Source: Dehalococcoidia bacterium
Lineage (GTDB): Bacteria; Chloroflexota; Dehalococcoidia; UBA6926
Assembly: GCA_009841045.1 (NCBI GenBank)
Contig: VXMO01000028.1
Location: forward strand, 2,916-66,915
Reading direction: 5' to 3'
Length of the DNA stretch: 64,000 nt
Shown: piece by piece, positions 11,475 to 53,915 of the stretch
Numbering within the stretch: position 1 is the first letter of the stretch
Layout of the letters: the number at the start of each line of letters is the position of its first letter
Made by a program: the position numbers and the translations under genes
Notes under the pieces: model-generated
Told to the model about the DNA's origin: nothing
Databases searched by the model: none
The model's input: only the letters and a program-made list of their open reading frames with translations

Positions 11475-11487
11475 CCTGCACTACCCC

Positions 11488-11515
11488 GTCATTCCCGCGA
11501 AAGCAGGAATCCATC
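11488..11515. repeat. dispersed element family A copy (ATTCCCGC-GAAA-GCAGGAAT)
   Basis: It lies between the convergent SWIM and HIT genes. Confidence 0.6.
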
Positions 11516-11519
11516 CGGC

Positions 11520-27479: not shown

Positions 27480-29864
27480 CTAGCCCAAAGCCTCCACAAG
27501 AATCTCAATGTTTCTGCGGAACATGGTCAGGTACGTGTCTGCGCCGCTGCCCGCCGGTCCAAGGGAGCCGGTGAAGAGGGAGTAGAAGCCCGCTCCTGTT
27601 TCGTCGGCAATCGTACGCGCGATCCGTTCAGGGACCGTGTTCTCTCCGAAGACCGCCGGAACCCCCTCGTGCTCGATAATCTCGACGAGCTCAGCAAGCT
27701 GCTCCGCTGATGACTCCGTTTCCGTCGTTCCACTGGGAATCACCGTTCCCACCACTTCAAAGCCGTACAGCAAAGCAAAGTAGCTGTGCGTATCGTGCGA
27801 GGTGACGAGGATGCGGTGGTCGGCAGGGATTGTGGCAACCTGCTGCTCGCTCCACGCGTGGAGCTCTTGCAACTGGGCCACATAGGCCGTGGCGTTAGCG
27901 GTGTAGGTCTCCGCGCCGGCCGGATCCATCATCGCCAGACGAGTGGCGATGTCAATGACCGCGGTCTGGACTCGAATCGGGTCAAACCAGAAGTGAGGAT
28001 CGTGCGTACCGTGGTCATGATCGTGGTGATCATGGTCGTCGTGCTCGTCCTCGTCTTCGTGGTCGTCATCCTCGTCGTGGTCATGCTCATCTTCATGGGC
28101 GTGCTCGTCCTCATGATGGTCATCAACGCCCAATCCGACGAAGGCGATGCTGCGAGGCTGCCCGCCGATGGGCCACGTGCGCTCAATCTCCCCATGTGGA
28201 AGATGGAACTCAATGATCTGGCCGCCAACCCTGTCTGAAAGGTACAGAAACTCGCCAACGACGATGAACGACGGAGAGTTGCTGCCTTCGAATGCCTCTA
28301 CAAGCTCGTAGGTTTCCTCTACTTCGCCGTGCTCCACGTGGATGACGTTCAAGAGCCCATCGTATGTCAGTACGTACAGATGCTCACCATGAGCGTCAAA
28401 AGCCGCGCTGCGCACGGTCTTCTCAGCAGTTGGAGGCAGGACGAGCGACATTTCATCGCCCTCGGCGTCAATCATCCAGAGTCCGCCGTTCAGGCGAGCG
28501 CCGCCTTCCTCACTGTATGAGGCAGAGCCGAAGAAGTACTCGGAATCGTGATGCCCCCACAGAGTGCCAATGCGGGCCGCCGGATTCATGTCGGCCGGGT
28601 TCTCAATGAACGAATGCTCATATTCGCCGAAATGGGCATGAATGAACAACACTCCGCCGGCGCAGCCGAACACCGTGCCATGCGCATTGCTAGCCTCGCC
28701 GTGGAGGGCCGGGCATGCGCGGGACGCCCCGTCAAAGACGACATCGCCGCCCATCGTCCAGACCTCCGCCCCGAGCGGCAAGCTGCTTGTGCCCGAAACA
28801 CTCGGGTAGTCCGGATTGTTGGTCGTCACCAGAACGTTTCCATCCTCCAACACGATGCCTGCGCCGTGCTGCAGACCTGCCTCCAGCCAGGCCGGTTCGT
28901 ACTCGTTGAGCTCTTCTATCAGGTCGTGCTCCTCGAACAGAGCGATTCGACCCGACCCGTCATGGAAGATTGCCGTCCAGCCTGCATGAGGGTTGAAGTG
29001 GATAGGCCGGTTGTCAGTTGTGCCTACGGTCAGCCGCGAAACGGAATCCGTGACCAGGTCGAAGTGATCGCCGTGTTCCTCAAGGTAGATGCCGCCATCA
29101 AAGATGTGGACGCGGTCGTCATTGGCGGCATCATCTCCCGGTCCGCGGGCGAGAGCAAAGGCAAAGCGTCCGCTTGGGCTCGTGTAGAGCGTTGCCGCGG
29201 GCGCCGCCACCTGCAGGCTCCCCTCATCCAACTGTTCCGTTGTGAGGTCCAGGACGGACACGGTGGCGGAGTCTCCGTCCGCGATGAGAAGTCGGCCCGT
29301 GAGGTCCTCATGGCCCATCTCGTCCATGTGATCGTCATGGTCGTCATGCTCATCGTGATGGGCGCCGGTTTCCGCGAATTCAATCGGATTCACAGCTTCA
29401 GCGAGAGCAATGATCTTTGACTCGTCCGTGCTTGCGTTGTGGATGAGCTCCTCAAGCCACTGGCCCTCCAGCTGAAGACCAACGGTAAATACCAGGTCAG
29501 CATCCACAATGTTCGCAACATCTCGCGCGCCGGGCTGGTACGTATGCGGGTCGCCGCCCGGCGGGATGAGGCTCGTCACCTCTACGCGATCTCCGCCGAT
29601 ATTCTTGATCCAGTCGCCGACGATGTTGCTCGTCGCGATCACCTGCAGTGGCTCGTGATCCATCTGGGTATCCCCGGATGATCCGGTCTGCGATGTGTCG
29701 GTCTGCCCCGTGGTGGACGATGTATCAGCGGGTTGTGGTGTCGCTGTAGGATCGTCCTCGCTTTCGCACGCTGCAACGGCCAGGACCATTGCAAGCGCGA
29801 GAGTTAGTAACAAGAGGCCAAATGCTCTCGCTGGAATCAGCCTCCGTACTCCAAATGCCTTCAT
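27480..29864 (-). CDS. ZnuA/AztC-type metal-ABC-transporter substrate-binding lipoprotein with a large (about 390 aa) beta-propeller-like insertion in the His-rich loop
   Basis: Lipobox LAVAAC. N-lobe of cluster-A-I SBPs (IATSNIVGDWIKNIGG...DPHTYQP). His-rich stretch HHDEHDDHDDHMDEMGHED, then the insert with repeated xDGxxL/YVLTYDG-like strand motifs. Second stretch DDHHEDEHAHEDEHDHDEDDDHEDEDEHDDHDHHDHDHGTHDPHFWFDP, then the ZnuA C-lobe (ILVTSHDTHSYFALLYG...). Confidence 0.7.
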   Translation of the reverse strand: MKAFGVRRLIPARAFGLLLLTLALAMVLAVAACESEDDPTATPQPADTSSTTGQTDTSQTGSSGDTQMDHEPLQVIATSNIVGDWIKNIGGDRVEVTSLIPPGGDPHTYQPGARDVANIVDADLVFTVGLQLEGQWLEELIHNASTDESKIIALAEAVNPIEFAETGAHHDEHDDHDDHMDEMGHEDLTGRLLIADGDSATVSVLDLTTEQLDEGSLQVAAPAATLYTSPSGRFAFALARGPGDDAANDDRVHIFDGGIYLEEHGDHFDLVTDSVSRLTVGTTDNRPIHFNPHAGWTAIFHDGSGRIALFEEHDLIEELNEYEPAWLEAGLQHGAGIVLEDGNVLVTTNNPDYPSVSGTSSLPLGAEVWTMGGDVVFDGASRACPALHGEASNAHGTVFGCAGGVLFIHAHFGEYEHSFIENPADMNPAARIGTLWGHHDSEYFFGSASYSEEGGARLNGGLWMIDAEGDEMSLVLPPTAEKTVRSAAFDAHGEHLYVLTYDGLLNVIHVEHGEVEETYELVEAFEGSNSPSFIVVGEFLYLSDRVGGQIIEFHLPHGEIERTWPIGGQPRSIAFVGLGVDDHHEDEHAHEDEHDHDEDDDHEDEDEHDDHDHHDHDHGTHDPHFWFDPIRVQTAVIDIATRLAMMDPAGAETYTANATAYVAQLQELHAWSEQQVATIPADHRILVTSHDTHSYFALLYGFEVVGTVIPSGTTETESSAEQLAELVEIIEHEGVPAVFGENTVPERIARTIADETGAGFYSLFTGSLGPAGSGADTYLTMFRRNIEILVEALG

Positions 29865-30247: not shown

Positions 30248-31207
30248 GTGATAATGACATTTGTTGCTCCATTCAATCTATTGAAGTGGCTCATGCAACG
30301 CATTCTTCTCATAGCTCTGCTGATTGCCGTGGTCGTGACCGCCACACTGCTGGCGGCCTGCTCTGACGAATCGTCTGAACCAACGACGGAGGCGGAACCG
30401 GGAGAGGTCGGCGCTCAAGACGGCACAATCACCGTGTCAAAGGACCAACCTCTGGCCTACGCGCAGGCATTGGTCCAGCAAGCGATTGACCGCTACGGCA
30501 CGGATGGACGCCAGGCAACCATCGACTTCTATAACTCCGAGGAAAGCCTCGATGGTGATTGGCATGTGTTCATCCTCGATGAAGCGGGATACATCGCGTC
30601 CATGGCAGCGTTCCCTGCTTGGGTTGGCGTCCATGATTCCGAGTTCAAGGGATACAAGGACTACCCCGCCGGGCAGATGGTGATCGACGGCGCACACGAG
30701 GAAGGCATCCAAATCGATTACCTCGCCAGGGATTTCTTTGGCAACATCGACCTCAATCATCTTTGGGTCGTCAAACACGATGGACTGGTATTTGCCTCGT
30801 CGTCGTGGTCCGGCGAGGAAATATCGAAGTCGGACCAGCCCGGGTACACGCAAGAACAGGTCAGGCTGGCGATAGGGCTCTATGAAGCGTCCGGCCTGCA
30901 GGCGGCACTCGACTACTACAACAGCCCGGACAGCGTTGACGAGCAATGGTACACGTTCATCGTGGACACGGAGACTGGACGCACAATCGGACACTTCAAT
31001 CCTGACCTGCGTGATCGTGACCCAAGTTTACGCGTCGACTCCACCGGATACTTCTACGGGGATGATCTTCTGGGAGCAACGGAGTCCGGCGACTGGATCC
31101 AGTACGTGATCACGAACCCTGACAATGGTGAAGAACAGCTCAAACACACGTGGGCCGTCCTGCACGATGGCTACATCTTCGCCTCCGGCTGGTACGAAGA
31201 CCCGTAG
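30248..31207 (+). CDS. lipoprotein with two tandem sCache_2-like extracytoplasmic sensor domains (no output domain)
   Basis: Signal and lipobox LLAAC (alternative ATG at 30293). Two repeats of about 140 aa with the pattern YxFxxDxxG...G...DxxGY..G..gxWxxYxxxNPxxG...KHxWxxxHDGxIFxSGWYED. Confidence 0.6.
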   Translation: MIMTFVAPFNLLKWLMQRILLIALLIAVVVTATLLAACSDESSEPTTEAEPGEVGAQDGTITVSKDQPLAYAQALVQQAIDRYGTDGRQATIDFYNSEESLDGDWHVFILDEAGYIASMAAFPAWVGVHDSEFKGYKDYPAGQMVIDGAHEEGIQIDYLARDFFGNIDLNHLWVVKHDGLVFASSSWSGEEISKSDQPGYTQEQVRLAIGLYEASGLQAALDYYNSPDSVDEQWYTFIVDTETGRTIGHFNPDLRDRDPSLRVDSTGYFYGDDLLGATESGDWIQYVITNPDNGEEQLKHTWAVLHDGYIFASGWYEDP

Positions 31208-31267
31208 TTGCTAGAATAGTCGTAGATGTACTCCACTTCCCCATCTTCTCCACAAAGGACATGACCG

Positions 31268-32569
31268 ATGACCAATTCTATTGCCGTCTATAACGTCATC
31301 TCCAGGCGGATAGGGCAGGCTGCGCTGCCAATGCTTCTATTCCTCACTTTGGGGATGCTGGCATTGTCGTTCGGCTGCACTGAGCAACAGGCAGACGATC
31401 TGGCGGCTATTGATGCCCCGAGGAGTCAGCCCACCGCGTACACGCAGGCATACGTACAGGCCGCTATCGATTACTACGAGGCCAACGGACTTGATGAAAC
31501 TGTCAACCATTACAACGATCCCGCCAGCGTTGACGGTCAGTGGTACATCTTCATTGCCGATGAGACCGGGCGCCTCATCGTGCACGGCGCGAACCAGGAC
31601 CTGGTTGGCGTGCCCCTGGACGATGTCATTGACGGGAATGGCTACCCATCGGGCCGAATTGTGGCCAATGATGCTGACGAAGGCGGCGCATGGTCGGAGT
31701 ACGTGTTCTTCAATCCCGCCACCGGCCGTTCACAGGCTAAGCATTCGTGGCTGGTCATCCACGATGGCCTTATCTTCGGCTCCGGCTGGTACGAGGACGG
31801 CCCGCGCAAGTCTGAACAGCCGGCTTACACGCAGGAATATGTGCGCCAGGCATTGAACCTGTATGACTCTTTAGGCCGTGAAGCCCTTGTCGACTATTAC
31901 AACAATCCCGTCAGCATTGATGGCCAGTGGTACATGTTCATCACCGATGAAAGCGGACGCCTCATCGTTAATGGCGCGAACCAGGACCTGATTGGCATGC
32001 CCCTTGTTGACGTCGTCGGGGCGAACGGCTACCCGTCTGGTCGGATCGTGGCGGATGACGCGGATGAAGACGGCGAATGGTCCGTGAACACCTTTTTCAA
32101 CCCTGCCACAGGCCGCTCCCAGATCAAGCACCCGTGGCTGGTCAGACATGATGGTCTGATCTTCGCCTCCGGCTGGTACGAGGACGGCCCGCGCAAATCG
32201 GAACAACCGGCGTACACGCAGGCGCTCGTTCAGCAGGCGCTGAATCTCTATGATTCCTCCGGCCTGGACGTGGCGATTGAGTACTATAGCGATCCTGTCA
32301 GCGTGGACGGCCCATGGTATGTCGGCATCATTGATGCTGAGACGGGACGGACAATCGCCCACTTCAACCCCGATGTGCGAGATCGCGACCCTGCTCTACG
32401 CGTCGATTCGACGGGGTACTTCTACGGAGATGACCTGCTTCGTGCAACGGAGGAGGGTCATTGGTTCGAAGTCGTATTCCACAACCCGGCTACCGGCCAA
32501 GAGGAGCGTAAACATTCGTGGGCCGTCCTGCACGACGGCTACATCTTTTCGTCCGGCTGGTACGAATAA
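31268..32569 (+). CDS. lipoprotein with three tandem sCache_2-like domains, paralogue of the preceding gene
   Basis: Signal and lipobox LSFGC. Three repeats each starting PAYTQ...V.QA...Y and ending SGWYEDGPRKSEQ. Confidence 0.6.
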   Translation: MTNSIAVYNVISRRIGQAALPMLLFLTLGMLALSFGCTEQQADDLAAIDAPRSQPTAYTQAYVQAAIDYYEANGLDETVNHYNDPASVDGQWYIFIADETGRLIVHGANQDLVGVPLDDVIDGNGYPSGRIVANDADEGGAWSEYVFFNPATGRSQAKHSWLVIHDGLIFGSGWYEDGPRKSEQPAYTQEYVRQALNLYDSLGREALVDYYNNPVSIDGQWYMFITDESGRLIVNGANQDLIGMPLVDVVGANGYPSGRIVADDADEDGEWSVNTFFNPATGRSQIKHPWLVRHDGLIFASGWYEDGPRKSEQPAYTQALVQQALNLYDSSGLDVAIEYYSDPVSVDGPWYVGIIDAETGRTIAHFNPDVRDRDPALRVDSTGYFYGDDLLRATEEGHWFEVVFHNPATGQEERKHSWAVLHDGYIFSSGWYE

Positions 32570-32932: not shown

Positions 32933-33880
32933 CTAGATATCCGCCTCCGCCCCTCTGCCCTGTTCAATTGCGGCGCGGTACACGTGCGTCGCAAGCGCAA
33001 CATCCCACAGCCCGATGCCGTGCGACTCAAAGAGTGTGATGTCACTGTCTGAACGACGGGCGGACTCACCACCCGCAACGATATCCCCAAGCTCCGGGAG
33101 TCGCGCCAGATCAACGATGCCGCGCTCGATGGGTTCCTGCAGGTCGCCGCTCTCAATCGCGGTCTGTTCGCGGTCGTCGACCACGATTACATCCGCCCTT
33201 CTAACGGCCTCCATATCAATCTCGCGCCGCAACAGTGAGTTCGACCCAATCGCGTTCACATGCGCCCCCGCCTTGAGCCACGCGCCCTCCAACACCGGCG
33301 ATGACGCGTTCGTCGCGGTAATCACGATGTCCGCCTCCCCAACAATCTGTGCGTTATCGACCGGCTCTACCGGAACCCCTACCCGCTCACTCATTCGCTC
33401 CGCAAACGTCTTGCGTCTGTCCTCATCTCGACCGTAGGCGAGCACCCGGGACACATTTCGCACTGCGCACACCGCAGAAACCTGTGTCCGCGCCTGCATG
33501 CCGGTTCCGATGATCCCAACGGTCTGCTCTGCGTCCTCCCGCGCCATGTACTTCGTCGCGACGCCGCTGGCCGCGCCCGTGCGCAGCGTGCCAAGCCAGT
33601 TCGCCTGGATAATCGCCGCGAGCTTGCGCTCGGTCATGTCGTAGAGAAGAACGTGGACGGCCCCGGCGGCATAGAACGCCGTCTTGAATCCCAGGAATCC
33701 CGTCTCGGCGTCTCCGCCCGGCATGATGGCAAGTGCCCCGTGCGGAGCGCGGAGACGGCGGCGCGGGTCGTTCACCGCCCTGCCCGCCCCCTGGCTCTTA
33801 TGAGCGCTCTCGAGCGCCGCGATAGCGTCGTCCATTGTTGAGAGATCACGAACATCCTGTTCAGTGAGTAGTAAGGGCAC
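32933..33880 (-). CDS. ornithine cyclodeaminase/mu-crystallin family protein
   Basis: 315 aa. Rossmann GIIGTGMQAR and other OCD-family blocks. Confidence 0.75.
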   Translation of the reverse strand: MPLLLTEQDVRDLSTMDDAIAALESAHKSQGAGRAVNDPRRRLRAPHGALAIMPGGDAETGFLGFKTAFYAAGAVHVLLYDMTERKLAAIIQANWLGTLRTGAASGVATKYMAREDAEQTVGIIGTGMQARTQVSAVCAVRNVSRVLAYGRDEDRRKTFAERMSERVGVPVEPVDNAQIVGEADIVITATNASSPVLEGAWLKAGAHVNAIGSNSLLRREIDMEAVRRADVIVVDDREQTAIESGDLQEPIERGIVDLARLPELGDIVAGGESARRSDSDITLFESHGIGLWDVALATHVYRAAIEQGRGAEADI

Positions 33881-34046
33881 GCAACACCTCCACGTTGACT
33901 TTCATGTATGGTACGCGGACTGTCCGCCAAATTGACACGCCCGAAGCGCGAACGGACAATAAGACGACGCGCCGCCGGATGAACGGACAGCGCAGTAATT
34001 GCCGCCTGACGGCGTGCGGCGTTTAAGAAAGCGGGGGAGGCAGACA

Positions 34047-35441
34047 ATGGCCAAGGCGCGGACGATTGGGGAATTGAGGGAGAGCGAATACCGCGTTCTT
34101 AGCGTCAAGGACGAGCTTCGCAAGAACCTCGTGGCGCGGATTCGGACGGGTGAGGAACTCTTCCCCGGGATCGTCGGCTATGAGGAAACGGTTCTGCCGC
34201 AGATCGAGAACGCCATCCTCTCCGGGCAGGACATCATCCTGCTTGGTGAGCGGGGTCAGGCCAAGACGCGTATCATTCGCGCGCTCGTCGGCCTCCTTGA
34301 TTCCGAAGTGCCGGTCATTGAGGGCTGTGAGATCAATTGCAACCCCTATGCCCCCACATGCCGTTCCTGCCTTATCCGCTTCGAGGAGGAGGGTGACAAG
34401 ACCCCTATCGCCTGGCAGCCCCGCGAACGCCGTTACGGCGAGAAGCTCGCCACACCGGACATCACCATTGCGGACCTCATCGGCGAGGTCGACCCCATCA
34501 AGGTGGCCGAAGGCCGCTATCTATCCGACGAGTTCACCATCCACTACGGCCTCATCCCCCGGACCAACCGCGGCATCTTCTGTATCAACGAGCTGCCCGA
34601 CTTATCGGAGCGGATACAGGTCGGCATGTTCAACATCATGGAAGAGCGCGACGTGCAGATTAAGGGCTACAAGGTTCAGCTCCCACTGGACCTGTTCCTG
34701 ATTGCGAGCGCGAACCCGGAGGACTACACCAACCGCGGGCGGATCATCACCCCGCTCAAGGACCGCTTCGGCGCGCAGATTCGCACCCACTATCCCAAGA
34801 CGCTCGAACATGAGATTGAAATCATGGACGCGGAGCGTGAGCCGATCGCGGACGTGGGCGTGAACCTGACCATGCCTTATTTCATGAAGGAAACCGTCGC
34901 CGAGTTCACGAATCTTGCACGCAAGAGCGGCGACGTGAACCAGCGCTCCGGTGTCAGCGTCCGCGTGTCCATCGGCAACTATGAGACCATCTCCTCCAAC
35001 GCCGTGCGCCGAGCCCTCCGCCTTAAGGAGAAAGAGGCCGTGCCTCGTGTTAGTGACATGGCCTTCTTCCTCACATCGACGGCCGGCAAGGTTGAACTGG
35101 AAAGCGTGGAGGAGGGCCGCGAGCCGCGCATCATCGAGGATCTGACCAAGCGCGCGGTTCTTAACACGTTCAATAATCACTTTTCCACCAATGAATTCGA
35201 CGCCATCATCCGCCGCTTTGACGAAGGTCTGTCCATTGATACCGGCGACATGATTCCGTCGAAGGAGTTAGCCGGCTGGCTCAAGGACCTGCCGGAGCTG
35301 AAGGACGCGGCCAATCGACTAGACGTCAAGCGCTCGGTAGCGGCGCAGGCGTCGGTCGTGGAGTTCGTGCTGGATGGGCTGCACCTGAGCAGGAAGATCA
35401 ATAAAGACCGACACGAAGGTGGCTACCGCTATCGAGGCTGA
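34047..35441 (+). CDS. ChlI/BchI-family AAA+ ATPase (Mg-chelatase-like)
   Basis: ATG at 34047 follows GGGGGAGG. Degenerate Walker A GERGQAKT, Cys-containing insert, NRGIFCINE (Walker B) and NPEDYTNRGRIITPLKDRFG (sensor-2 block), all in BchI order. Confidence 0.7.
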   Translation: MAKARTIGELRESEYRVLSVKDELRKNLVARIRTGEELFPGIVGYEETVLPQIENAILSGQDIILLGERGQAKTRIIRALVGLLDSEVPVIEGCEINCNPYAPTCRSCLIRFEEEGDKTPIAWQPRERRYGEKLATPDITIADLIGEVDPIKVAEGRYLSDEFTIHYGLIPRTNRGIFCINELPDLSERIQVGMFNIMEERDVQIKGYKVQLPLDLFLIASANPEDYTNRGRIITPLKDRFGAQIRTHYPKTLEHEIEIMDAEREPIADVGVNLTMPYFMKETVAEFTNLARKSGDVNQRSGVSVRVSIGNYETISSNAVRRALRLKEKEAVPRVSDMAFFLTSTAGKVELESVEEGREPRIIEDLTKRAVLNTFNNHFSTNEFDAIIRRFDEGLSIDTGDMIPSKELAGWLKDLPELKDAANRLDVKRSVAAQASVVEFVLDGLHLSRKINKDRHEGGYRYRG

Positions 35442-35449
35442 GTAAGCTC

Positions 35450-37498
35450 GTGGCGCCCATCTACCGGTTTTCTCGTTGGGACGGTACGCAGCTTCTCGAC
35501 GAAGCAGCCGATGAAGCCCTCCTGGACGAACTCATGGACGATGTCCTCGCCCGAGGGGACATCGACTCATCCCTCCGCTCAATCATGCGGCGGGGCACAC
35601 ACCCGCGTGACAGCGATGTCGATGTGCAGGGCATGGACGATATGCTCCGCCAGCTGCGCCAACAGCGGCAGGACATCCTCCGCAAACACGACCTCGGCAG
35701 CCTGCTGGATGATCTCCGAAACAAGCTGAAAGAGGTTATCGAAACGGAACGTCAGGGTATTCAAGAGCGTGTGTCCGCGGCAGAGTCCGCGATTGAAAAT
35801 CCCCCACCCGGCATAGACCCGGGAACCGCTGCCCGCCTCGCCGAACGCGTCAAGGACATGGCGCAACGGAATGAGGCAACCCTGAATGCCCTGCCAGACA
35901 ACCTGGGCGACGCCGTCCGGGAACTCAATGACTACGAGTTCATGGACCCGGAGGCGCAGCGGCTTTTTGAAGAGTTGAAGAACCTCATACAACAGCAGTT
36001 CGTCGATCGGCAGTTCTCTGACCTGCGTGAGAATCTTGAAAACATCACGCAGCAAGACCTAGATGCCGCCGCGCAGATGATGCGGGAACTCAACGGCATG
36101 CTGCAGAGTCACATCCGCGGCGACGAGGAAACGGGCTTCGATGAGTTCATGGAGCGGTGGGGCGGCGCGTTCGGTGAGTCGCCGCCGCAGGACATCGAGC
36201 AGCTCATCGACCAACTCCAGGATCAGGCCGCGCAGGCGCAGTCCCTCATGAGCAGCCTCTCACCGAGCCAGCGTCAACAGCTCCAGGACATGATCTCCGG
36301 CATGTTGGACAACCCTCAACTCGCTCAACAGATGGCCGAGCTGCAAACGAACCTTGACATGCTTCGCGTTGGCGGCGAATTTGGGCGCCAATTCAGGTTC
36401 AGTGGCGATGAGCCAGTCGCCCTGCAGGACGCCCTCAACCTGATGGACGAACTGAACCGCATGGACAACCTTGAGGACGATCTCAAGAAGGCTCTTTATG
36501 GCGGCGGCAGCATTGACCAGATCGATACCGAGCGCGTCAGTGAGATCCTCGGTGAAGACGCGGAAGCATCGCTGGAAAAGCTGCGTCAACTAGCCGAGCG
36601 TGCCGTCGAGGAGGGGCTTCTGCGAACGTCGGATGACGGGTCGCACGAGTTTACCGCGCGAGGCATCCGCAAGATTGGCGAGAAGGCGCTGGCCGAGATA
36701 TTCGGCTACCTGCGGCGAACATACACAGGCCGCCACACCGCCCGAATGCAGGGACGGGGCGGCGAGCCGACAGAGGCCACCCGGCCCTACCAATACGGCG
36801 ACGAGTTCAACGTCGATCTGCGCCGCACCGTGCAGTCGGCGGTCATGCGCAGCGGCAATGGCGTGCCGGTACGGCTTGAGGCGGACGATTTCCAGGTGCG
36901 CGAGACGGAGGAATTGGCGCAGGCGTCCACGGTGCTGCTGATCGACCTCAGCCTGTCCATGGCGATGCGTGGCAACTTTGTGATGGCAAAGAAGGTCGCG
37001 TTGGCGCTGGACACCCTGATCCGGACGCAGTTCAGCCGCGACAGCCTCTACGTGGTGGGATTCTCAACCTACGCGCGGGAGATGAAACCTGAGACGCTCG
37101 CCTACCTTAGCTGGGACGAGTTCGAGCCGTACACCAACATCCAGCACGGCCTCGTCGTCGCCCAAAAACTGCTGGCGCGGCATGCGGGCGGCAACAAGCA
37201 GATCATCATGGTATCGGACGGAGAGCCGACGGCCCACATCGAGAACGGCCGCATCTTCCTCCAATACCCGCCAAGCCCGCGCACAATCCAGGAGACCCTG
37301 AAAGAGGTGTCACGCACCACGCGGGCGGGCATCTCCATCAACACGTTCATGCTGGAGCAGAACCCATACCTGATGGAATTCGTGGACCAGATCACGAGAA
37401 TCAACAAGGGCCGCGTCTTTTACACGTCGCCGGAGCGGCTTGGCGAATACATCGTCGTGGACTACTACACCAACCGCCGCCGCTCCATCATCTCCTGA
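35450..37498 (+). CDS. VWA-domain protein (ChlD/CobT-like architecture: helical N-terminal region, acidic linker, C-terminal von Willebrand A)
   Basis: C-terminal MIDAS motif VLLIDLSLSM...SDGEPT. Long Gln/Glu/Asp-rich coiled-coil-like N-terminal part. The start is 9 nt after the ATPase stop. Confidence 0.7.
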   Translation: MAPIYRFSRWDGTQLLDEAADEALLDELMDDVLARGDIDSSLRSIMRRGTHPRDSDVDVQGMDDMLRQLRQQRQDILRKHDLGSLLDDLRNKLKEVIETERQGIQERVSAAESAIENPPPGIDPGTAARLAERVKDMAQRNEATLNALPDNLGDAVRELNDYEFMDPEAQRLFEELKNLIQQQFVDRQFSDLRENLENITQQDLDAAAQMMRELNGMLQSHIRGDEETGFDEFMERWGGAFGESPPQDIEQLIDQLQDQAAQAQSLMSSLSPSQRQQLQDMISGMLDNPQLAQQMAELQTNLDMLRVGGEFGRQFRFSGDEPVALQDALNLMDELNRMDNLEDDLKKALYGGGSIDQIDTERVSEILGEDAEASLEKLRQLAERAVEEGLLRTSDDGSHEFTARGIRKIGEKALAEIFGYLRRTYTGRHTARMQGRGGEPTEATRPYQYGDEFNVDLRRTVQSAVMRSGNGVPVRLEADDFQVRETEELAQASTVLLIDLSLSMAMRGNFVMAKKVALALDTLIRTQFSRDSLYVVGFSTYAREMKPETLAYLSWDEFEPYTNIQHGLVVAQKLLARHAGGNKQIIMVSDGEPTAHIENGRIFLQYPPSPRTIQETLKEVSRTTRAGISINTFMLEQNPYLMEFVDQITRINKGRVFYTSPERLGEYIVVDYYTNRRRSIIS

Positions 37499-37516
37499 CA
37501 CTTTCACCTCACCCCA

Positions 37517-37533
37517 GCGAATCTGGATTCGCA
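37517..37533. repeat. short perfect hairpin GCGAATC-TGG-GATTCGC
   Basis: Seen directly. It is the first of three consecutive hairpins in this intergenic region. Confidence 0.4.
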
Positions 37534-37545
37534 GAGCCATTTACC

Positions 37546-37572
37546 TCATTCCAGCGAAAGCTGGAATCCATC
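37546..37572. repeat. dispersed palindromic element, family A copy (ATTCCAGC-GAAA-GCTGGAAT)
   Basis: Matches 11488, 52452 and 53848 copies. Same conserved flanks CATTC...GAATCCATC, GAAA loop, stem with compensatory changes. Confidence 0.6.
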
Positions 37573-37580
37573 GGGCCTCC

Positions 37581-37604
37581 TATTCTGAGCGCAGCGAAGA
37601 ATCC
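37581..37604. repeat. dispersed element family C copy (ATTCTGAGCGCAGCGAAGAATC)
   Basis: Identical 22-mer also at 44105-44126. Confidence 0.55.
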
Positions 37605-37693
37605 GAAAACACCTTTACCAAGGCTCTTGACATGCGCATTTCATGCTTACACAATTACATCAGTTATAGTAATTGTGTTTGGAGGTAACGGCG

Positions 37694-38356
37694 ATGGCGG
37701 AGTCGCGCGGAGACAGGAAGCAGCTCGTTGAGGACATCGACGCGCTGGCGCTCCTCGTTGAGCAGGCGGTTCGAGAGGCAGTTGTCGGCGAGGCGACGCA
37801 GGAGGACATAGACGCGCTCACGGCGAAAGTAGGTGAGGCGGTCCGGTTCGCAGCCGGCGGCGGCGATATCCGCCCGGTCGATGCAGACGCGCTTGCGAAG
37901 GCGATTCTGGAGGCCGTCCGCGAGGCGTACCACGAGGTTCATGCGAACGGCAGGACATTCAATCTGAACTTCGAGGGTCTGGACGATAAGGTCAAGGATG
38001 CCGCACGCGCTGCGGCGTCCGGTGGGGAGGCGCTCGCGGAAAAGCTGAGCCAGGCCCGCCACGGAGCAGCCAACGTGGCGGGGGAAGTCACTGGATTTGT
38101 GCGCGGCATGACGCGAACGGTTCAGCAAGTAGGCAGGAAGAACGTTGTCATGGTGCGGATGGACGATGACGCCCTTGACCACCTGACTATGCTGATCGAC
38201 GCCGACCTCTTCGCCAGCCGCTCCGAGGCAGCGGCGTTCCTGATCACCGAGGGCATCAAGTCCCGCTCAAAACTCTTCAATCGTATCCACGAAAAGATCG
38301 CCGAAATCCGCAAAGCAAAAAGTGACCTGACGGCCATTCTGGAAGAGGAAGAGTAG
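37694..38356 (+). CDS. hypothetical protein with a C-terminal ribbon-helix-helix (CopG/Arc-like) domain
   Basis: ATG at 37694 follows GGAGGT. The C-terminus VVMVRMDDDALDHLTMLIDADLFASRSEAAAFLITEGI has the beta-strand, helix, helix pattern of RHH. The N-terminal 150 aa are Ala/Glu-rich and helical. Confidence 0.55.
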   Translation: MAESRGDRKQLVEDIDALALLVEQAVREAVVGEATQEDIDALTAKVGEAVRFAAGGGDIRPVDADALAKAILEAVREAYHEVHANGRTFNLNFEGLDDKVKDAARAAASGGEALAEKLSQARHGAANVAGEVTGFVRGMTRTVQQVGRKNVVMVRMDDDALDHLTMLIDADLFASRSEAAAFLITEGIKSRSKLFNRIHEKIAEIRKAKSDLTAILEEEE

Positions 38357-38358
38357 CA

Positions 38359-39807
38359 GTGTACATTCGACTGACACGTAAGAAGCACACATCCGACAGA
38401 CCGGGCGTCACACTGACAGCCGGCGCTGTGACCGCGGCCCGTGCAGTGGATGGCACTCAGATTCACAAGTACGCGTATGAGGCTAGGCCGTATGAGGCTA
38501 GGCACGGATTTGCGGCCGAGGACGCCAACCACAGAAACGACATTCTGCGCGGTAGGCCCGCCACCATCGTCGGCACGGACAACAAGCCCAACGGCCCTGA
38601 CCGAAAGGTGAACGGCGTGCTGATCCAGTCGAAGTATTGCAGGACTGCATGGAAGAGCGTCGACTCGGCGTTTGATAAGTGCACCGGCATGTATCGGTAT
38701 GCGGGTCAGGTGCTAGAAGTGCCCAAAGACCAGTTTGACGATGCCGTCCAATACATGGCACGGCGAATTGCCGAGGGCAAGGTGCCGGGCTACAGCGACC
38801 CTGCTGATGCTGTCAAGGTGGTCAAGCAGGGCTCCGTCACTTACCAGCAGGCGAAGAATATAGCCCGCGCAGGTAATCTGGACTCCCTTATCTTCGACGC
38901 CAAGACGCAAGTCGTCAGCTGCCTGTCGGTGGCAGGCATCTCCTTTGTCATAACTTTTGCACGGAGCAGGTGGAGCGGCCGTAGCAACAGGGAGGCTGCT
39001 TGGGATGCCACCAAGTCCGCGGGGCTAGGCATGGGCGCGACGATGGTGACAGGTGTGGTAACGGCCCAACTGTTGCGTACCCCTTTGCCGTCGACTATTG
39101 CCGAAACGCTGACACGCTTGCCAGTGCAGAGGCAGATTGCGCGCGGCCCGATTGCCAGCGTTTTTCGCTCTACTCCGCTCGCCACGGCGATTTCGTTCGG
39201 TATCACGAGCGCGCCGGACTTCTACAGGGCGACACTAGGCCACACCATTTCCAAGCAGCAACTCGCAAAGAATACGTCCATCAACGCGGTGGGCACGGCC
39301 GGAGGATCGGCGGGTTGGGTGGGTGGCATGTACGTTGGTGGCATCATCGGCACAGCAATCCCCGTCCCGGTTGTCGGCACTGCGGCCGGAGCGCTGATGG
39401 GCGGCATTATCGGCTCTCTCAGCATCGGCATGGGAACATCCGCCCTCGCCCACAAGGCCGCAAGTAGAGTCATTGCCGACGATGCTCAGAAGCTCATCGC
39501 CATCATCGAGACGGAACTCGGCATTCTCGCCGAGGAGTACCTCGTATCCGAGGACGAACTCGCCGAGATCGTCAACACAATTGGCGGCCGAGCGAACACC
39601 ACTTGGCTCCGGCGGCTCTACAGAGAAACGCGACGCGCCTCGGATGATGCCGCTGAACGTGATCTTATCCGCGCAGAACTGGAACCCGAGTTTGAGGCTG
39701 TCGGTAAACGGCGCCAGCGCATCACGCCTCCTGGAGAACAGGAAATCAGTGTAATCGCGTTGACATCAGATCCGAGGGATTCTGCGCCAGACATGGCGCT
39801 CGCATAG
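38359..39807 (+). CDS. hypothetical 482-aa protein with a central glycine-zipper hydrophobic segment
   Basis: GTG at 38359, 3 nt after the previous stop. GTAGGSAGWVGGMYVGGIIGTAIPVPVVGTAAGALMGGIIGSLSIGMG is a GxxxG zipper. The N-terminal 230 aa and C-terminal 100 aa match no domain I can recognise. Confidence 0.45.
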   Translation: MYIRLTRKKHTSDRPGVTLTAGAVTAARAVDGTQIHKYAYEARPYEARHGFAAEDANHRNDILRGRPATIVGTDNKPNGPDRKVNGVLIQSKYCRTAWKSVDSAFDKCTGMYRYAGQVLEVPKDQFDDAVQYMARRIAEGKVPGYSDPADAVKVVKQGSVTYQQAKNIARAGNLDSLIFDAKTQVVSCLSVAGISFVITFARSRWSGRSNREAAWDATKSAGLGMGATMVTGVVTAQLLRTPLPSTIAETLTRLPVQRQIARGPIASVFRSTPLATAISFGITSAPDFYRATLGHTISKQQLAKNTSINAVGTAGGSAGWVGGMYVGGIIGTAIPVPVVGTAAGALMGGIIGSLSIGMGTSALAHKAASRVIADDAQKLIAIIETELGILAEEYLVSEDELAEIVNTIGGRANTTWLRRLYRETRRASDDAAERDLIRAELEPEFEAVGKRRQRITPPGEQEISVIALTSDPRDSAPDMALA

Positions 39808-39863
39808 GATTGTGTGCCGCGCGAGCCGCATGGAGGCTTTCTCCCTCTCCTTGCCCGTTCCCC

Positions 39864-40178
39864 CTATGGCAGCGGTGAGAACGGCAGGGGTTGCAGGATG
39901 TGATTCGTGATGTGGGAGACCGTCTCGCCGTATTTCTCCATCGACTTTGGCCATTCGGGGTCGGCATAGAACGCGCCCCACGCCGCCTCCCGCGCATCCC
40001 AGCTCTCCCACGCCAGCAGATAGATTACCCGGTGGGGAATCCCCACCTCCTCGCGCCAATACCCGACCGCGCGGAAGCCGTGCCGCTCGAACATTTTCGC
40101 CGTCACGGTCGCGAACCTGTCAATCAGATCGTTGATCCGTGACGTATGCGCCTCGTACTGCCTCAGTTCATAGAACAT
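39864..40178 (-). CDS. NIPSNAP family protein
   Basis: 104 aa starting MFYELRQYE..., with the characteristic NIPSNAP fold signature. Confidence 0.7.
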   Translation of the reverse strand: MFYELRQYEAHTSRINDLIDRFATVTAKMFERHGFRAVGYWREEVGIPHRVIYLLAWESWDAREAAWGAFYADPEWPKSMEKYGETVSHITNHILQPLPFSPLP

Positions 40179-40220
40179 GGATTTACCCCCAATTGTTGAC
40201 GCTGTGGCACACCTTTCGAC

Positions 40221-40664
40221 TTACTCAGTCGGATCAACGGGCAGGCCCGCGCCGGTCGCCACTTCCCACAGGAATCCGTCGGGATCGGCAAAGTAGCCAG
40301 CGTAGCCGCCCCAGAATGTGTCCGCAGCAGGTTTAGCGATGCGCGCCCCGGCTGATTCCGCCTGCGCGATGACAGCGTCCACCTCGGCACGCGACGCCAC
40401 GTTGTGCGCTATTGAGAAGCCATGCAATGCCGGCTGAGGAGTTCCTTTGAATTCCGGGTGGCCTATATCCTCGGCCAGGTCGTCCCGCGAATACAGGGAG
40501 AGCATGATGTCGTTCAGTTCAAAGAACGTAATCTCATCCCCGCCCGCGTCATGCACGGGAAAGCCCAGCCCGTCCCGATAAAAGACTGTCGAGCGCGCCA
40601 AATCCGAAACGCCGAGAGTGATGATGCTGATCCTGGGTTCCATCCGACCGTTTTCCTCCGTCAA
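40221..40664 (-). CDS. VOC (glyoxalase/bleomycin-resistance) family protein
   Basis: Paired beta-alpha-beta-beta-beta modules (ISIITLGVSDLARSTVFY...). Probable start at ATG 40643. Confidence 0.65.
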   Translation of the reverse strand: MTEENGRMEPRISIITLGVSDLARSTVFYRDGLGFPVHDAGGDEITFFELNDIMLSLYSRDDLAEDIGHPEFKGTPQPALHGFSIAHNVASRAEVDAVIAQAESAGARIAKPAADTFWGGYAGYFADPDGFLWEVATGAGLPVDPTE

Positions 40665-40726
40665 TTGGCCTCTTGCTCACGTGAGCGTATCGCCGCACTG
40701 CTGAGGGCTGCAACAACATTTTGACT

Positions 40727-40770
40727 CCCTCTCCCTCGGGGAGAGGGCTAGGGTGAGGGGGCTAGCCCCC
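40727..40770. repeat. dispersed element family D copy (CCCTCTCC-loop-GGAGAGGG plus GGGGG-CTAG-CCCCC)
   Basis: Near-identical to 53881-53915. The second hairpin contains the priA stop codon. Confidence 0.55.
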
Positions 40771-43212
40771 GCTCATCGGGTCCACATCCACCGTCCAGCC
40801 GGGGGGCAGCGCTACCGTTTCCAGAAGCTTCGTCGGATCGTCGGCAATGATCGTTATCTGCCAGCGATACCGCCCTCGTAGTCGTTCCCACGGAGCCGGC
40901 GCGGGGCCGATGACCCGCGTGTTCATCATGCCGCGCGAGCGAATCTCAGCACGCAGTAACCGCGTCAACTGTCCCGCCGCCTCCTGTACGTCACGCCGTG
41001 AAGTCCGCGCGCACGTCAGCCGAGCCATGCGACTGTACGGCGGATACCGAAGCTGCCTCCTGAACTGCGTTTCCTCGAGGTAGAACTGCCGATAATCCTG
41101 CGCCGCCGCGGCCTGTATCGCCTGGTTCTCCGGCTCATACGTCTGCACGATGACGCGGCCCGGCGCATGGCCTCTCCCCGCCCTGCCCGCCACCTGGCAG
41201 AGCAGTTGAAACACCCTCTCCGAAGCGCGGAAATCTGGCGCGTGCAGCCCGATATCCGCGTTCACCACACCCACAACCGTGACGCCAGGTAGATCCAGTC
41301 CTTTGGCAATCATCTGCGTTCCGACAAGGATGTCCGCGCGGCCATTCGCAAACTCCCCAAGGATCGGCTCATGTCCCCGCGCTTCGTTGACCGCGTCGCG
41401 GTCCCACCGAATGACATGCGCCCCCGGAAATGCCGCCATTGCCTCCTCGGCAACGCGTTCCGTGCCGATGCCTATAGCCCGAATCGTATTGCGACGGCAG
41501 TTTGGGCAGCGGGTGGGCGAGCGTCGCCTCTCCCCGCACAGATGGCACACAATGCGCTCATCGGCGTGGTACGTCATCACCGTCGTGCAGCGACGGCATC
41601 GCATCGTATGGCCGCACGCGCGGCACTGAACCGCCTGCCCCGCCCCGCGCCGGTTCACGAACAGGATCGCCTGCTCACCCCGCGCCAACGCATCGGTCAT
41701 CGCCTCACGGAGCGCTCTTGAAAATATGCTGCGGTTGCCCTCCATCAGCTCCTGCCGCAGATCGACAATCTCTACGTCCGCAAGGGGCCGCTCCGTCCAT
41801 CCCGTGCCGCCGCCGTTCTCAGCAGCCGTAATCCGCCCGGGGAGTTCCAGCAGGGTGATCTCAGTCCTGAGCGCCGCGTACATCGTGCTCACGTCCGGCG
41901 TCGCACTGCCAAGCATCACCACGGCCTTCTCGCGGCGGGCTCGCTCGATAGCCACGTCTCGGGCGTGGTAGCGGGGCGTGGGCGATTCCTGCTTGTACGT
42001 CCACTCCTGCTCTTCGTCCACGACAATCAGGCCAACGTCCGGCATGGGCGCGAGCGCGGCGCTCCGCGAGCCGATGACGATATCGAACTGCCCCTCCGCG
42101 ATGCTGCGCCACTCGTCATACCGCTCCCGCAGCGTCAGCCCGCTGTGGAGAACGGCAACACGACCGGGGAATCGTTCCCAGAACCGGCCGATTGTCTGCG
42201 GCGTCAGCGCAATCTCCGGCACCAGCATGATGCCCCGCCTGCCCTTCTCAATCACGTGCCGAAAGGCTTGCAGGTACACCTCCGTCTTGCCGCTCCCCGT
42301 CACGCCGTGAAGCAGATAAGTGTCGGACACGCCGTCATCAATGCTCGCCGTCACGTGATTCAGCGCGTCTTTCTGGTGGGGAGTGAGTTGGAGATTGGCC
42401 GCAGGAGGAGCAGAGTCCCGTGCAGCAAGCGGATCACGCCGCGTCTCGCGTTGCTCGAGGGTGATCACCCCGGCCTCAGCAAGCGCATCCCAGGACCCCC
42501 GCGCCGCTCCGGAAACACGGCGCAAGTCAGATAAACGTCCACCAAGGTTTGCGGCCAGCGCCTCCAACGCATCCGCCTGCCGAAACGCGCCGGAAGTCCG
42601 CAGTTCCCCTGCTTTGATTCTCAACTGGTCCACCGGGGCTGCCGCCTCAACAAAAGTCTCCATGCGAGGAGAGATGCGCGGCCCCTCCCACACGTCGGAC
42701 GTGTCGAGATAGCCCCTACCTGTCAGCGCCGTTACGTCGCGGGCGGCACGTGCGCCGAACTCGTCGCGGATGGCGGCGGTGGTCGTCTCGCCGGCGGCCT
42801 CAACAAAGGCCAGTATCTCCGCGCGTCGCGGCGAAACGCTCTCCATTGCGTCCCGTCCCGCCTCCGTTACACGAACGATAATCGTCTGCCGTCGCTCGAA
42901 CGCCGGCGGCAGCATGGGGCGGTACGCCGTATAGAGATCGGTCTGATAGTAGGCTGCTATCCACTCGCCCAGGCCAATGAGTGGCGCCGCGATAACCGGA
43001 TCATCGGCGACAAGCGACTCAATAGGCCGCGTTCGGGAATACCCCGGCTCGTCCGTGATTTCCAGAACGATGCCTTGAAACGTGTGGCGACCAAACGGGA
43101 CGATAACCCCATGCCCCGCCCGCACACGATCGGCAAGCTCGTCCGGTATGGAATAACTGTAGGAACGCCGACCGGCTCCGGGTGAGTTGACGGCGACCTG
43201 CGCGTACGGCAT
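40762..43212 (-). CDS. priA: primosomal protein N' (replication restart helicase PriA)
   Basis: Walker A GVTGSGKTEVY, DEEQE, and the Cys4/Cys4 zinc-binding region CRACGHTMRCRRC...CHLCG...CPNC. Confidence 0.9.
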   Translation of the reverse strand: MPYAQVAVNSPGAGRRSYSYSIPDELADRVRAGHGVIVPFGRHTFQGIVLEITDEPGYSRTRPIESLVADDPVIAAPLIGLGEWIAAYYQTDLYTAYRPMLPPAFERRQTIIVRVTEAGRDAMESVSPRRAEILAFVEAAGETTTAAIRDEFGARAARDVTALTGRGYLDTSDVWEGPRISPRMETFVEAAAPVDQLRIKAGELRTSGAFRQADALEALAANLGGRLSDLRRVSGAARGSWDALAEAGVITLEQRETRRDPLAARDSAPPAANLQLTPHQKDALNHVTASIDDGVSDTYLLHGVTGSGKTEVYLQAFRHVIEKGRRGIMLVPEIALTPQTIGRFWERFPGRVAVLHSGLTLRERYDEWRSIAEGQFDIVIGSRSAALAPMPDVGLIVVDEEQEWTYKQESPTPRYHARDVAIERARREKAVVMLGSATPDVSTMYAALRTEITLLELPGRITAAENGGGTGWTERPLADVEIVDLRQELMEGNRSIFSRALREAMTDALARGEQAILFVNRRGAGQAVQCRACGHTMRCRRCTTVMTYHADERIVCHLCGERRRSPTRCPNCRRNTIRAIGIGTERVAEEAMAAFPGAHVIRWDRDAVNEARGHEPILGEFANGRADILVGTQMIAKGLDLPGVTVVGVVNADIGLHAPDFRASERVFQLLCQVAGRAGRGHAPGRVIVQTYEPENQAIQAAAAQDYRQFYLEETQFRRQLRYPPYSRMARLTCARTSRRDVQEAAGQLTRLLRAEIRSRGMMNTRVIGPAPAPWERLRGRYRWQITIIADDPTKLLETVALPPGWTVDVDPMSGG

Positions 43213-43282: not shown

Positions 43283-43951
43283 TTAGGACTTCTCTTCTTC
43301 AGCTTCAGCCGACTCTTCATCCGCTGATTCATCGCCATCGGATTCGGCCTCTGCATCAGCAGGCTCCTCGGGCTCCGTATCCTCAGACGCTTCAGGAGCC
43401 TCTTCAGCTTCCGCCGCGGCCTCCGTCTCAGACGCCTCGGGAGTCTCTTCGGTTGCCTCTACAGCTTCGGCTTCTTCCGCCTCCGCTACAACGTCCTCGG
43501 CCTCGACGACATCATCCTCAATCTCTTCTTCCTCGATGACGTCATCCTCGGCCACAGCAACAGGAGCGTCGGCCTCAACGACTGCGCCGTCCTCGATGAT
43601 GCGGCGGGCGCGCGTGCCGGTCTTGATGCGGGCGCGGCGGCCGGTGCGGCCACGCTGGTAGTACAGGCGGGCGCGGCGAACCTTGCCCTGTCGAACAACG
43701 TCGATGCGCTCAAGGCGCGGCGAGTTCAGCAGGAACGTGCGCTCAACGCCAACACCCTGGATCACGCGGCGGATGGTGATGTTTGCATTCGGGCCGCTGC
43801 GGGTCATCCACATGACCACGCCCTGCAGCTGCTGCGTGCGAACGCGCTCACCCTCAACAACCCGATAGTACACGCGGACGGTATCACCCGGGCGGACGTG
43901 CTGATAACGGTGCTGCCTGGGAATTGAGGTCAGCAGATGCCCGACGTCCAT
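43283..43951 (-). CDS. rplS: 50S ribosomal protein L19 with a roughly 105-aa acidic C-terminal extension
   Basis: L19 core ends about ...RARLYYQRGRTGRRARIKT. It is followed by EDGAVVEADAPVAVAEDDVIEEEEIEDDVVEAEDVV...EEEKS (Ala/Glu/Asp-rich). Confidence 0.85.
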   Translation of the reverse strand: MDVGHLLTSIPRQHRYQHVRPGDTVRVYYRVVEGERVRTQQLQGVVMWMTRSGPNANITIRRVIQGVGVERTFLLNSPRLERIDVVRQGKVRRARLYYQRGRTGRRARIKTGTRARRIIEDGAVVEADAPVAVAEDDVIEEEEIEDDVVEAEDVVAEAEEAEAVEATEETPEASETEAAAEAEEAPEASEDTEPEEPADAEAESDGDESADEESAEAEEEKS

Positions 43952-44102: not shown

Positions 44103-44197
44103 GTCATTCTGAGCGCAGCGAAGAATCTAAAGCCTCAACTGTGCAGCCTTAGACCTCTTTGGATTCTTCTCTCCGCTGTCGCTCCGTTCAGAATGAC
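44103..44197. repeat. imperfect inverted repeat built from a family C element (forward 44103-44127, diverged inverted copy 44162-44197)
   Basis: GTCATTCTGAGCGCAGCGAAGAATC versus GATTCTTCTCTCCGCTGTCGCTCCGTTCAGAATGAC. It lies in the 257-bp trmD-rplS intergenic gap. Confidence 0.5.
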
Positions 44198-52451: not shown

Positions 52452-52476
52452 CGTCATTCCCGCGAAAGCGGGAATC
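52452..52476. repeat. dispersed element family A copy (ATTCCCGC-GAAA-GCGGGAAT)
   Basis: Perfect 8-bp stem with a GAAA loop. Flanks CGTC...C. Confidence 0.6.
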
Positions 52477-52494
52477 TATTGCATATTCCGCAGC

Positions 52495-53733: not shown

Positions 53734-53847
53734 GACCTATATTCCGACCCTGCCCTGACGCACGATAAGGCGCTGTCACACTAACGTATCACGGACGGTG
53801 CTCAAGCTATCATCGATAAGAGGATTAGGGGGAGGGGCAGCCTTCCC

Positions 53848-53875
53848 CTCATTCCTGCGAAAGCAGGAATCCATC
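53848..53875. repeat. dispersed element family A copy (ATTCCTGC-GAAA-GCAGGAAT)
   Basis: Immediately followed by a family D copy. Confidence 0.6.
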
Positions 53876-53880
53876 GGATC

Positions 53881-53915
53881 CCCTCTCCCTGAAGGAGAGG
53901 GTTGGGGTGAGGGGG
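53881..53915. repeat. dispersed element family D copy
   Basis: CCCTCTCC-CTGAA-GGAGAGGG then GTTGGGGTGAGGGGG. Matches 40727-40770. Confidence 0.55.

Follow-up and report, generated by a model that had tools for sequence, protein, structure and literature searches.

A YeeR-family membrane protein gene paired with a probable autoregulatory ribbon-helix-helix gene in a Dehalococcoidia bacterium

YeeR of Escherichia coli K-12 (b2001) is encoded in the cryptic prophage CP4-44, where its gene follows flu (Ag43) and, in the K-12 annotation, has no ribbon-helix-helix (RHH) gene beside it. The K-12 protein is a truncated copy of one found in pathogenic strains, in which yeeR precedes irmA and the three genes flu, yeeR and irmA share a single transcription unit (PMC6480617). 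Here we analyse a pair of genes in a 64-kb stretch of DNA from a Dehalococcoidia bacterium (the window, in which all coordinates are positions, on the + strand unless stated): gene 1 encodes a protein with an RHH-like motif, and gene 2 a protein of the YeeR family. RHH domains function as dimers, and in this form RHH proteins recognise operator half-sites that are repeated or inverted, usually within their own promoter; in classical RHH antitoxins the domain lies at the N-terminus. An initial annotation, made from the DNA letters, had proposed the two open reading frames (ORFs) for proteins of 220 and 482 residues, and both are real. On balance we favour reading the pair as a two-gene operon for an autoregulatory RHH protein and a YeeR-family membrane protein.

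Gene 2, which had been described as matching no nameable family and as having a 230-residue N-terminal region free of recognisable motifs, is by homology an ordinary full-length member of the YeeR family, which is catalogued yet uncharacterised, and its N-terminal region holds the YeeR_C domain. Searching 5.8 billion proteins with gene 2 brought up at least 641 homologues (clusters at 90% identity), and precomputed annotation places PF27347 (YeeR_C) on all 120 of the homologues listed and on the identical protein P0001; the identical protein at NCBI, from a Dehalococcoidia metagenome-assembled genome (MAG), is labelled 'DUF1269 domain-containing protein'. Residues 49-142 of the gene 2 product align with residues 410-507 of E. 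coli K-12 YeeR at 52% identity (BLASTP, E 5e-25), and an exhaustive phmmer search with the YeeR_C domain alone gave 840 clusters at 50% identity. The domain is placed either near the N-terminus of proteins of 450-650 residues, as in gene 2, or at about residue 400-430 of E. coli-type proteins of ~830 residues, which have an N-terminal extension of ~400 residues that gene 2 lacks and carry ~280-300 residues after the domain. Gene 2 has the common architecture of the family, in which the domain is followed by membrane segments that include a glycine zipper and then by a helical domain at the C-terminus, and a full-length alignment of 41 sequences (gene 2 and 40 homologues of ~40-52% identity) contains 53 invariant columns distributed over all three parts. 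Homologues that are 40-53% identical over their full length occur in Chloroflexota, Poribacteria, Latescibacterota, Planctomycetota, Cyanobacteria, Verrucomicrobiota, Proteobacteria and a Cytobacillus (Bacillota). Judged by these homologues, the gene 2 type is patchily distributed and strongly conserved in sequence, and the family is an accessory, horizontally spread one. The genomes with gene 2 relatives (L002-L076) are in many cases MAGs of Poribacteria, Latescibacterota and Dehalococcoidia, which may be a sampling bias, the search patterns having come from close relatives. Five longer homologues (P0120, P0073, P0244, P0247 and P0259) have N-terminal extensions without a significant Pfam match; an RHH-like segment in that of P0120 was an unconfirmed impression and was set aside.

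The YeeR_C domain is the best-conserved part of gene 2 in the 41-sequence alignment, and structural models indicate that it probably has a restriction-endonuclease-like fold. Folded alone, it was predicted with a local distance difference test score (pLDDT) of 85 and a template modelling score (pTM) of 0.79, and in the model of the full protein the block-mean pLDDT is 85-98 over most of the domain; the predicted order of its elements is alpha-beta-beta-beta-alpha-beta-alpha. Glutamate 54 (E54, on helix 1) and aspartate 81 (D81, at the start of strand 2) are nearly invariant, and R82 beside D81, Q90-x-K92 on strand 3 and E120 on strand 4 are invariant. A glutamate on helix 1, an aspartate at strand 2 and a (D/E)xK motif on strand 3 form the layout of the restriction-endonuclease-like, or PD-(D/E)xK, enzymes. 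In its predicted model, YeeR_C shares with nucleases of this kind (among them Hjc, VRR-NUC and the B. pseudomallei 1026b CdiA-CT tRNase) the alpha-beta-beta-beta-alpha-beta core order and the placing of conserved Glu, Asp and x-K on the same elements, whereas it differs in its QxK motif and in being fused to a polytopic membrane region. When the YeeR_C model was compared with the PDB by Foldseek, 17 of the top 50 matches were archaeal Holliday-junction resolvases, VRR-NUC, the B. pseudomallei CdiA-CT toxin, I-Ssp6803I, BspD6I and HindIII, and the top matches in BFVD were annotated as nuclease, VRR-NUC, Holliday-junction resolvase, CdiA tRNase, restriction endonuclease, endonuclease I and Mrr-like. 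Neither gene 2 as a whole nor its N-terminal domain matched a nuclease family in Pfam, NCBIfam or PHROGs, and the full-length AlphaFold2 model retrieved from the PDB only noise (helical bundles, G-protein-coupled receptors and ATP-binding cassette transporters) because its membrane region is of low confidence.

Behind this domain, hydropathy gives about four putative membrane segments, at residues 184-204 and 220-239, more weakly at 265-283, and in a double glycine-zipper hairpin at 318-364 (47 residues). The GxxxG hydrophobic segment of the initial annotation is thereby borne out: residues 301-366 contain 16 glycines and no acidic residue, and the zipper consists of two [GAS]xxx[GAS] runs parted by IPVPVV. 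DUF1269 matches residues 321-362 at E 1.3e-4 with 22.7 bits, below its cut-off of 26.9, and is found at E<=0.1 in 21 of the 41 family members. The helical C-terminal domain had also been recognised correctly; its block-mean pLDDT is 75-95 over residues 371-450, and D374/D375, W416, R418, F445 and R452 are conserved. Among the models of PADLOC, LeoB, from a dynamin-like defence system, matches the glycine zipper and the next helix in 32 of the 41 members, a likeness that consists of these two elements, while gene 2 has no GTPase domain. A second model, PDC-M09B, gives weak but collinear matches in 38 of the 41 (best E 2.6e-10), for example over residues 12-399 of P0008 against model positions 42-421 (E 2.9e-9), and at this locus weak matches only (E 1.6e-7 and 0.0075). 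The collinearity extends over the N-terminal domain and the membrane region, with E-values that are weak for a claim of the same family, and suggests that gene 2 is a distant relative of PDC-M09B. The PADLOC scan detected no PDC-M09A-like partner, the gene 1, AAA+ and von Willebrand factor A (VWA) proteins of the locus having no PDC-M09 match, and a literature search found no paper naming PDC-M09; PDC-x systems are unpublished, unvalidated candidates (PMC11811056).

Gene 1 likely encodes an RHH-type DNA-binding protein. It begins with four helical repeats of ~20 residues (residues 12-110), of the form D-x-D-A-L...A-V-R-E-A as read directly from the sequence and the family alignment, and continues with a linker, an RHH-like domain at residues ~148-190 and a conserved C-terminal helix at residues ~193-215. 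Its family has at least 324 members, is by these searches widespread and is without a name as far as could be found; its short relatives (125-137 residues) have one helical repeat only. The RHH-like motif, which the initial annotation had placed at the C-terminus of gene 1, is indeed there and is the best-conserved portion of the family: the core R-[DE]-N-V-V-M-V-R-[VM]-x(4)-L-x(7)-A-x(4)-S-R-S-E-A-A-A-[FY]-L-I-x-E-G, a strand-helix-helix pattern, is followed by the conserved helix, and R148, V151, V152, M153, R155, L167 and S175-R-S-E-A-A180 are invariant in gene 1 and 43 relatives. Profile support for gene 1 itself is weak, and across the family it is modest but consistent. The gene 1 protein matches phrog_4738, 'transcriptional repressor', over residues 149-190 (E 0.0019), and RHH_1 is the family matched most often among the relatives (10 of 43, best E 0.0016), one of which, the gene 1 homologue of locus L158, lies above the Pfam cut-off (20.6 bits against 20.5). 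Sequence-profile searches of the PDB, with the full-length family and with the RHH region alone, returned no RHH structure and only designed helical bundles and chance matches.

With CopG/Arc/MetJ-type repressors (Pfam RHH_1), the gene 1 family has in common the strand-helix-helix pattern, S-R-S-E at the start of helix 2 and repeated inverted half-sites over its own promoter. It differs from CopG-type proteins and RHH antitoxins in that its RHH domain is C-terminal, after one to four helical repeats, with an extra helix behind it, and from RHH antitoxins also in that its members mostly stand alone, among housekeeping genes and with no toxin partner. One relative with the full four-repeat layout, P0131, is followed by a gene (L160 6675-7835, also in L161) for a 386-residue protein that has Cys-rich zinc-ribbon motifs (weak zf-PARP match, E 0.0012) and ends in an Ala/Gly-rich hydrophobic hairpin. 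By eye, the zinc ribbon of this protein resembles the extensions at the N-termini of P0073 and P0259, two YeeR homologues. We considered this protein as a cryptic YeeR homologue and rejected it, as it has no significant homology to gene 2.

The sequence upstream of gene 1 contains a sigma-70-like promoter with 10 of 12 consensus matches, the sole such site in 37300-40300; shuffled sequence yields a mean of 1.2 such sites, and the argument for the promoter is its position and not its count. TTGACA also stands upstream of the gene 1 homologues in L001, one of the two closest relatives of the locus, and in L158, and the other closest relative, L002, has TTTACA. A perfect inverted repeat of 10 nt, ACACAATTAC-N10-GTAATTGTGT, overlaps the -10 box and the 5' untranslated region and ends 2 nt before the Shine-Dalgarno sequence GGAGG (37681-37685, 8 nt before the ATG). 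ACACAATTAC and GTAATTGTGT are the only two copies of this 10-mer in the 64 kb; GTAATTGTGT is kept at the same place, downstream of the -35 box, in L001 and L002, and in L158 the palindrome TTACGCGTAA follows the -10 box. Using 73 distinct gene 1-family genes from metagenomes (loci L078-L157), we found that the top three enriched upstream 6-mers are ATTACG, ACGTAA and AATTAC, which rank above the Shine-Dalgarno motif, and that the half-sites are most frequently arranged as ATTAC-N2-GTAAT immediately behind the -10 box, in many cases with further half-sites. TTAC-N2-GTAA occurs in 34 of the 73 upstream windows, compared with 9 of 3282 background windows and 1 of 496 GC-matched windows. The promoters of the gene 1 family thus look as those of an autoregulated RHH repressor family would, and at this locus autoregulation, by putative binding of the gene 1 protein, is likely because the perfect inverted repeat overlaps the -10 box.

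The two genes are seldom found together. A gene 1 relative adjoins the YeeR gene in four of 76 YeeR-family loci (L001, L002, L004 and L032), all from Dehalococcoidia, and a YeeR relative lies within 5 kb in none of 80 metagenomic gene 1-family loci, where a radical-SAM gene recurs on the downstream side (20 loci) and genes of the LspA/RluD type recur on the upstream side; the distant full-length gene 1 relatives P0129 and P0131 (36% identity) have no adjoining YeeR gene either. Clustering of neighbouring ORFs and a Pfam scan of ten flanking ORFs revealed no recurrent YeeR partner in other lineages. The neighbours there are lineage-specific (PPK2-like in Latescibacterota, a LamG-like protein in Poribacteria) or mixed (MoaA, M23 peptidase, DUF499). 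Because co-occurrence fails from both sides, we conclude from the gene neighbourhoods that RHH and YeeR genes are paired in a lineage-specific way in some Dehalococcoidia and do not make up a conserved module, and in other genomes outside this restricted subset the gene 2 family is largely without an RHH association. Where the pair is present the link appears meaningful, because the pair recurs in a different genomic context, without AAA+ and VWA genes (L004 and L158), and is accompanied by a fusion there. At these loci (L004 5373-7701; L158 7451-9770) a copy of the RHH domain is fused to the C-terminus of the YeeR protein, P0007 (589 residues, from a cluster with 61 sequences), a free RHH gene lies directly upstream of the fused gene, a 261-nt direct repeat of 87% identity brackets the YeeR part (in L004), and the fused protein is present in two assemblies. 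This fusion hints at a real functional link in that lineage.

The gap between the gene 1 stop and the gene 2 GTG is 2 nt, and not 3 nt as initially annotated, and the two genes are probably co-transcribed because this spacing is so tight; a sigma-70-like scan of 37300-40300 found no promoter-like site between them, and a weak terminator-like match lies within gene 2 (38920-38938). The GTG start is credible because gene 2 and its closest homologues can be aligned from their N-terminal residues onward (M-x-I-[KR]-L-T), and the purine-rich AGAGGA inside the end of gene 1, ~10 nt before the GTG, could act as a ribosome-binding site. On the reading that we favour, gene 1 and gene 2 would be one operon driven from the promoter described above, and the gene 1 protein, as a dimer, would repress its own promoter via GTAAT/ATTAC half-sites, here those of the 10-nt inverted repeat over the -10 box, an autorepression that would also set the level of gene 2. 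The gene 2 product would be an inner-membrane protein in which two cytoplasmic domains (the restriction-endonuclease-like one at the N-terminus and the helical one at the C-terminus) flank some four helices, with the glycine-zipper hairpin probably driving oligomerisation or membrane perturbation. As a role for the YeeR family, that of a single-polypeptide, membrane-anchored protein that would bind or cut nucleic acid seems the likeliest, and we put it forward with reserve.

Several observations weigh against this reading. The two arms of the candidate operator are separated by 10 nt, compared with 2 nt in the commonest arrangement of the family, and the gene 1 protein has no match to Pfam RHH_1 at E<=1 and reaches the threshold of no RHH profile. 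The Foldseek matches of YeeR_C fall short of significance (best E 0.045 in BFVD and 0.27 in the PDB), and an invariant Gln replaces the canonical acidic residue of (D/E)xK in its D...QxK motif. The domain may accordingly bind rather than cut, or its target may not be nucleic acid at all; the missing acidic residue might also be replaced by the invariant E120 of strand 4. The membrane region is modelled with a pLDDT below 50, its topology coming from hydropathy alone, and no function of YeeR is given in PMC6480617 or in anything else in the literature searched. Finally, the fusion could point past regulation to a physical interaction of the two proteins.

Such an interaction is the core of one alternative, in which the YeeR protein holds the RHH regulator at the membrane, as an anti-repressor or as part of a membrane-tethered transcription factor, and couples a membrane or nucleic-acid signal to transcription. 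We regard it as unlikely. The RHH copy fused to YeeR in L004 and L158, with a free RHH gene next to it, speaks for it, since a tethered copy could pair with the free protein given that RHH domains are dimeric, and the adjacency persists among YeeR proteins 41-53% identical to the gene 2 product in different contexts; but a single fusion lineage was found, the beta-strand of its fused RHH copy has diverged (SVVRIQIS versus NVVMVRLN), and most members of both families occur alone.

A toxin-antitoxin, immunity or abortive-infection module, which the initial annotation had suggested, would have gene 2 as a membrane-permeabilising toxin and gene 1 as its RHH antitoxin and repressor, whose loss frees the toxin. 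The tight coupling of the genes, the putative autoregulatory operator, a glycine zipper of the kind typical of membrane-active proteins and the weak collinear PDC-M09B matches fit such a module, and some gene 2 homologues adjoin defence-like genes (DUF499, an MNT-type nucleotidyltransferase, an HNH-like protein); E. coli yeeR itself lies in a cryptic prophage. However, a gene 1 relative is missing from the surroundings of 72 of the 76 YeeR loci and ORF clustering brought out no other recurrent partner, whereas a free-standing toxin should not persist in this way; none of the 80 gene 1-family loci carries a YeeR gene; the RHH domain is C-terminal and gene 1 has no PADLOC match; within lineages the synteny is stable, housekeeping genes surround the pair here and G+C is uniform over the region; and the PDC-x systems are candidates without publication (PMC11811056). 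Taken with these points, the proposal is quite improbable.

The idea that all four genes on this strand work jointly, as a MoxR-like AAA+ ATPase, a VWA protein, an RHH protein and a membrane protein in the manner of the nucleoside triphosphate-dependent MoxR-VWA conflict systems, we dismiss as very improbable: the same strand and order recur in L001 and L002 and the AAA+ protein faintly matches bpMoxR (E 0.026), but the AAA+ and VWA genes adjoin gene 2 relatives in only two of the 76 loci, these two closest relatives, the RHH-YeeR pair of L004 and L158 does without them, the spacer has its own promoter and dispersed repeats, and the VWA Pfam families are named after mycobacterial Rv0959/Mb0984, which indicates an independent conserved pair. 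In L001 the outer flanks are syntenic as well (a glutaredoxin and an OCD-type enzyme upstream, NIPSNAP and glyoxalase downstream), and because outer flanking genes are also syntenic in the close relatives, the four-gene order is general synteny. The gene pair favoured here as an operon is independent of the upstream AAA+/VWA pair.

The AAA+ (MoxR/ChlI-like) and VWA genes (33999-37498) correspond to the mycobacterial Rv0958/Rv0959 type; in L001 the Pfam families Mb0984_helical and Rv0959_3rd are assigned to the VWA homologue. Between the VWA gene and gene 1 lies a spacer of 195 bp (37499-37693) which, as initially annotated, contains three hairpins, and also a fourth inverted repeat that the annotation had not singled out. 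Stems lie at 37517-37532 and 37548-37567; the stem-loop at 37544-37581 (family D6) has relatives at 11487-11524, 52452-52489 and 53847-53884 with altered stem bases, and the 22-mer at 37582 is identical at 44106. Because these repeats are dispersed across the window, the hairpins are not signals specific to the locus. The window contains at least three families of such short intergenic hairpin repeats resembling repetitive extragenic palindromes, with further copies at 11000, 52310, 57153 and 59363, whose stem bases vary while pairing is largely kept.

Downstream of gene 2 lie housekeeping genes for NIPSNAP, glyoxalase, PriA, ribosomal protein L19, TrmD and a MogA-like protein, names that were read off translations except that NIPSNAP and glyoxalase come from the Pfam labels at the syntenic locus L001. 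The L19-like ORF (43283-43951, - strand) has 222 residues, which looks unusually long for L19, and a long, very acidic C-terminal tail rich in Glu, Ala and Asp. An Rfam scan of 33000-41000 gave no match, and the sole tRNA in the window is far off, at 52368. Elsewhere in the window, two adjoining genes at 30248-32569 encode proteins of 319 and 433 residues with N-terminal hydrophobic, signal-peptide-like segments and a repeated module of ~130 residues ending in HDG-x-IF-x-SGWYE (four module-end copies; repeat families D1, D2 and D4), and overlapping 9-nt-periodic repeats (GTCATC/GTCGTG...) at 28014-28119 suggest a low-complexity coding stretch, His/Asp-rich or similar.

Table 1. Coordinates of the gene pair, its predicted elements and its upstream neighbours in the window
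Feature	Position	Strand	Description
AAA+ gene	33999-35441	+	upstream neighbour
VWA gene	35450-37498	+	upstream neighbour
Three short spacer hairpins	37517-37603	+	copies of dispersed intergenic repeats
Sigma-70-like promoter of the putative gene 1-gene 2 operon	37627-37655	+	TTGACA, 17 nt, CACAAT
Candidate operator	37649-37678	+	perfect 10-nt inverted repeat
Gene 1	37694-38356	+	220 aa; ATG 37694, stop TAG 38354-38356
Gene 2	38359-39807	+	482 aa; GTG start; YeeR family, predicted inner-membrane protein (topology from hydropathy)
YeeR_C domain of gene 2 (aa ~45-160)	38491-38838	+	putative PD-(D/E)xK-like fold, predicted model
Membrane region of gene 2 (aa ~184-366)	38908-39456	+	hydropathy and Gly content
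C-terminal helical domain of gene 2 (aa ~367-482)	39457-39804	+	acidic; predicted model and conservation

Taken together, the locus is a catalogued family plus a regulator, and not a new toxin-antitoxin or defence module. Beyond the operon itself, we offer as speculation, and on the doubtful side, that YeeR-family proteins, including E. coli YeeR, may be an unrecognised class of membrane-embedded nuclease-fold effectors, in which a cytoplasmic PD-(D/E)xK-like domain is wired to a glycine-zipper module and which in some Dehalococcoidia would be physically coupled, as operon partner or by fusion, to an autoregulated RHH protein; such a complex would serve to tether DNA at the membrane or process it there, or to turn a nucleic-acid signal into permeabilisation and a transcriptional response. 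The gene 1 family and TTAC-N2-GTAA would provide a ready-made regulator/operator pair. As YeeR is an uncharacterised E. coli protein whose family occurs in many phyla, the combination of a nuclease-like fold and a glycine zipper gives a concrete hypothesis that is testable in E. coli.

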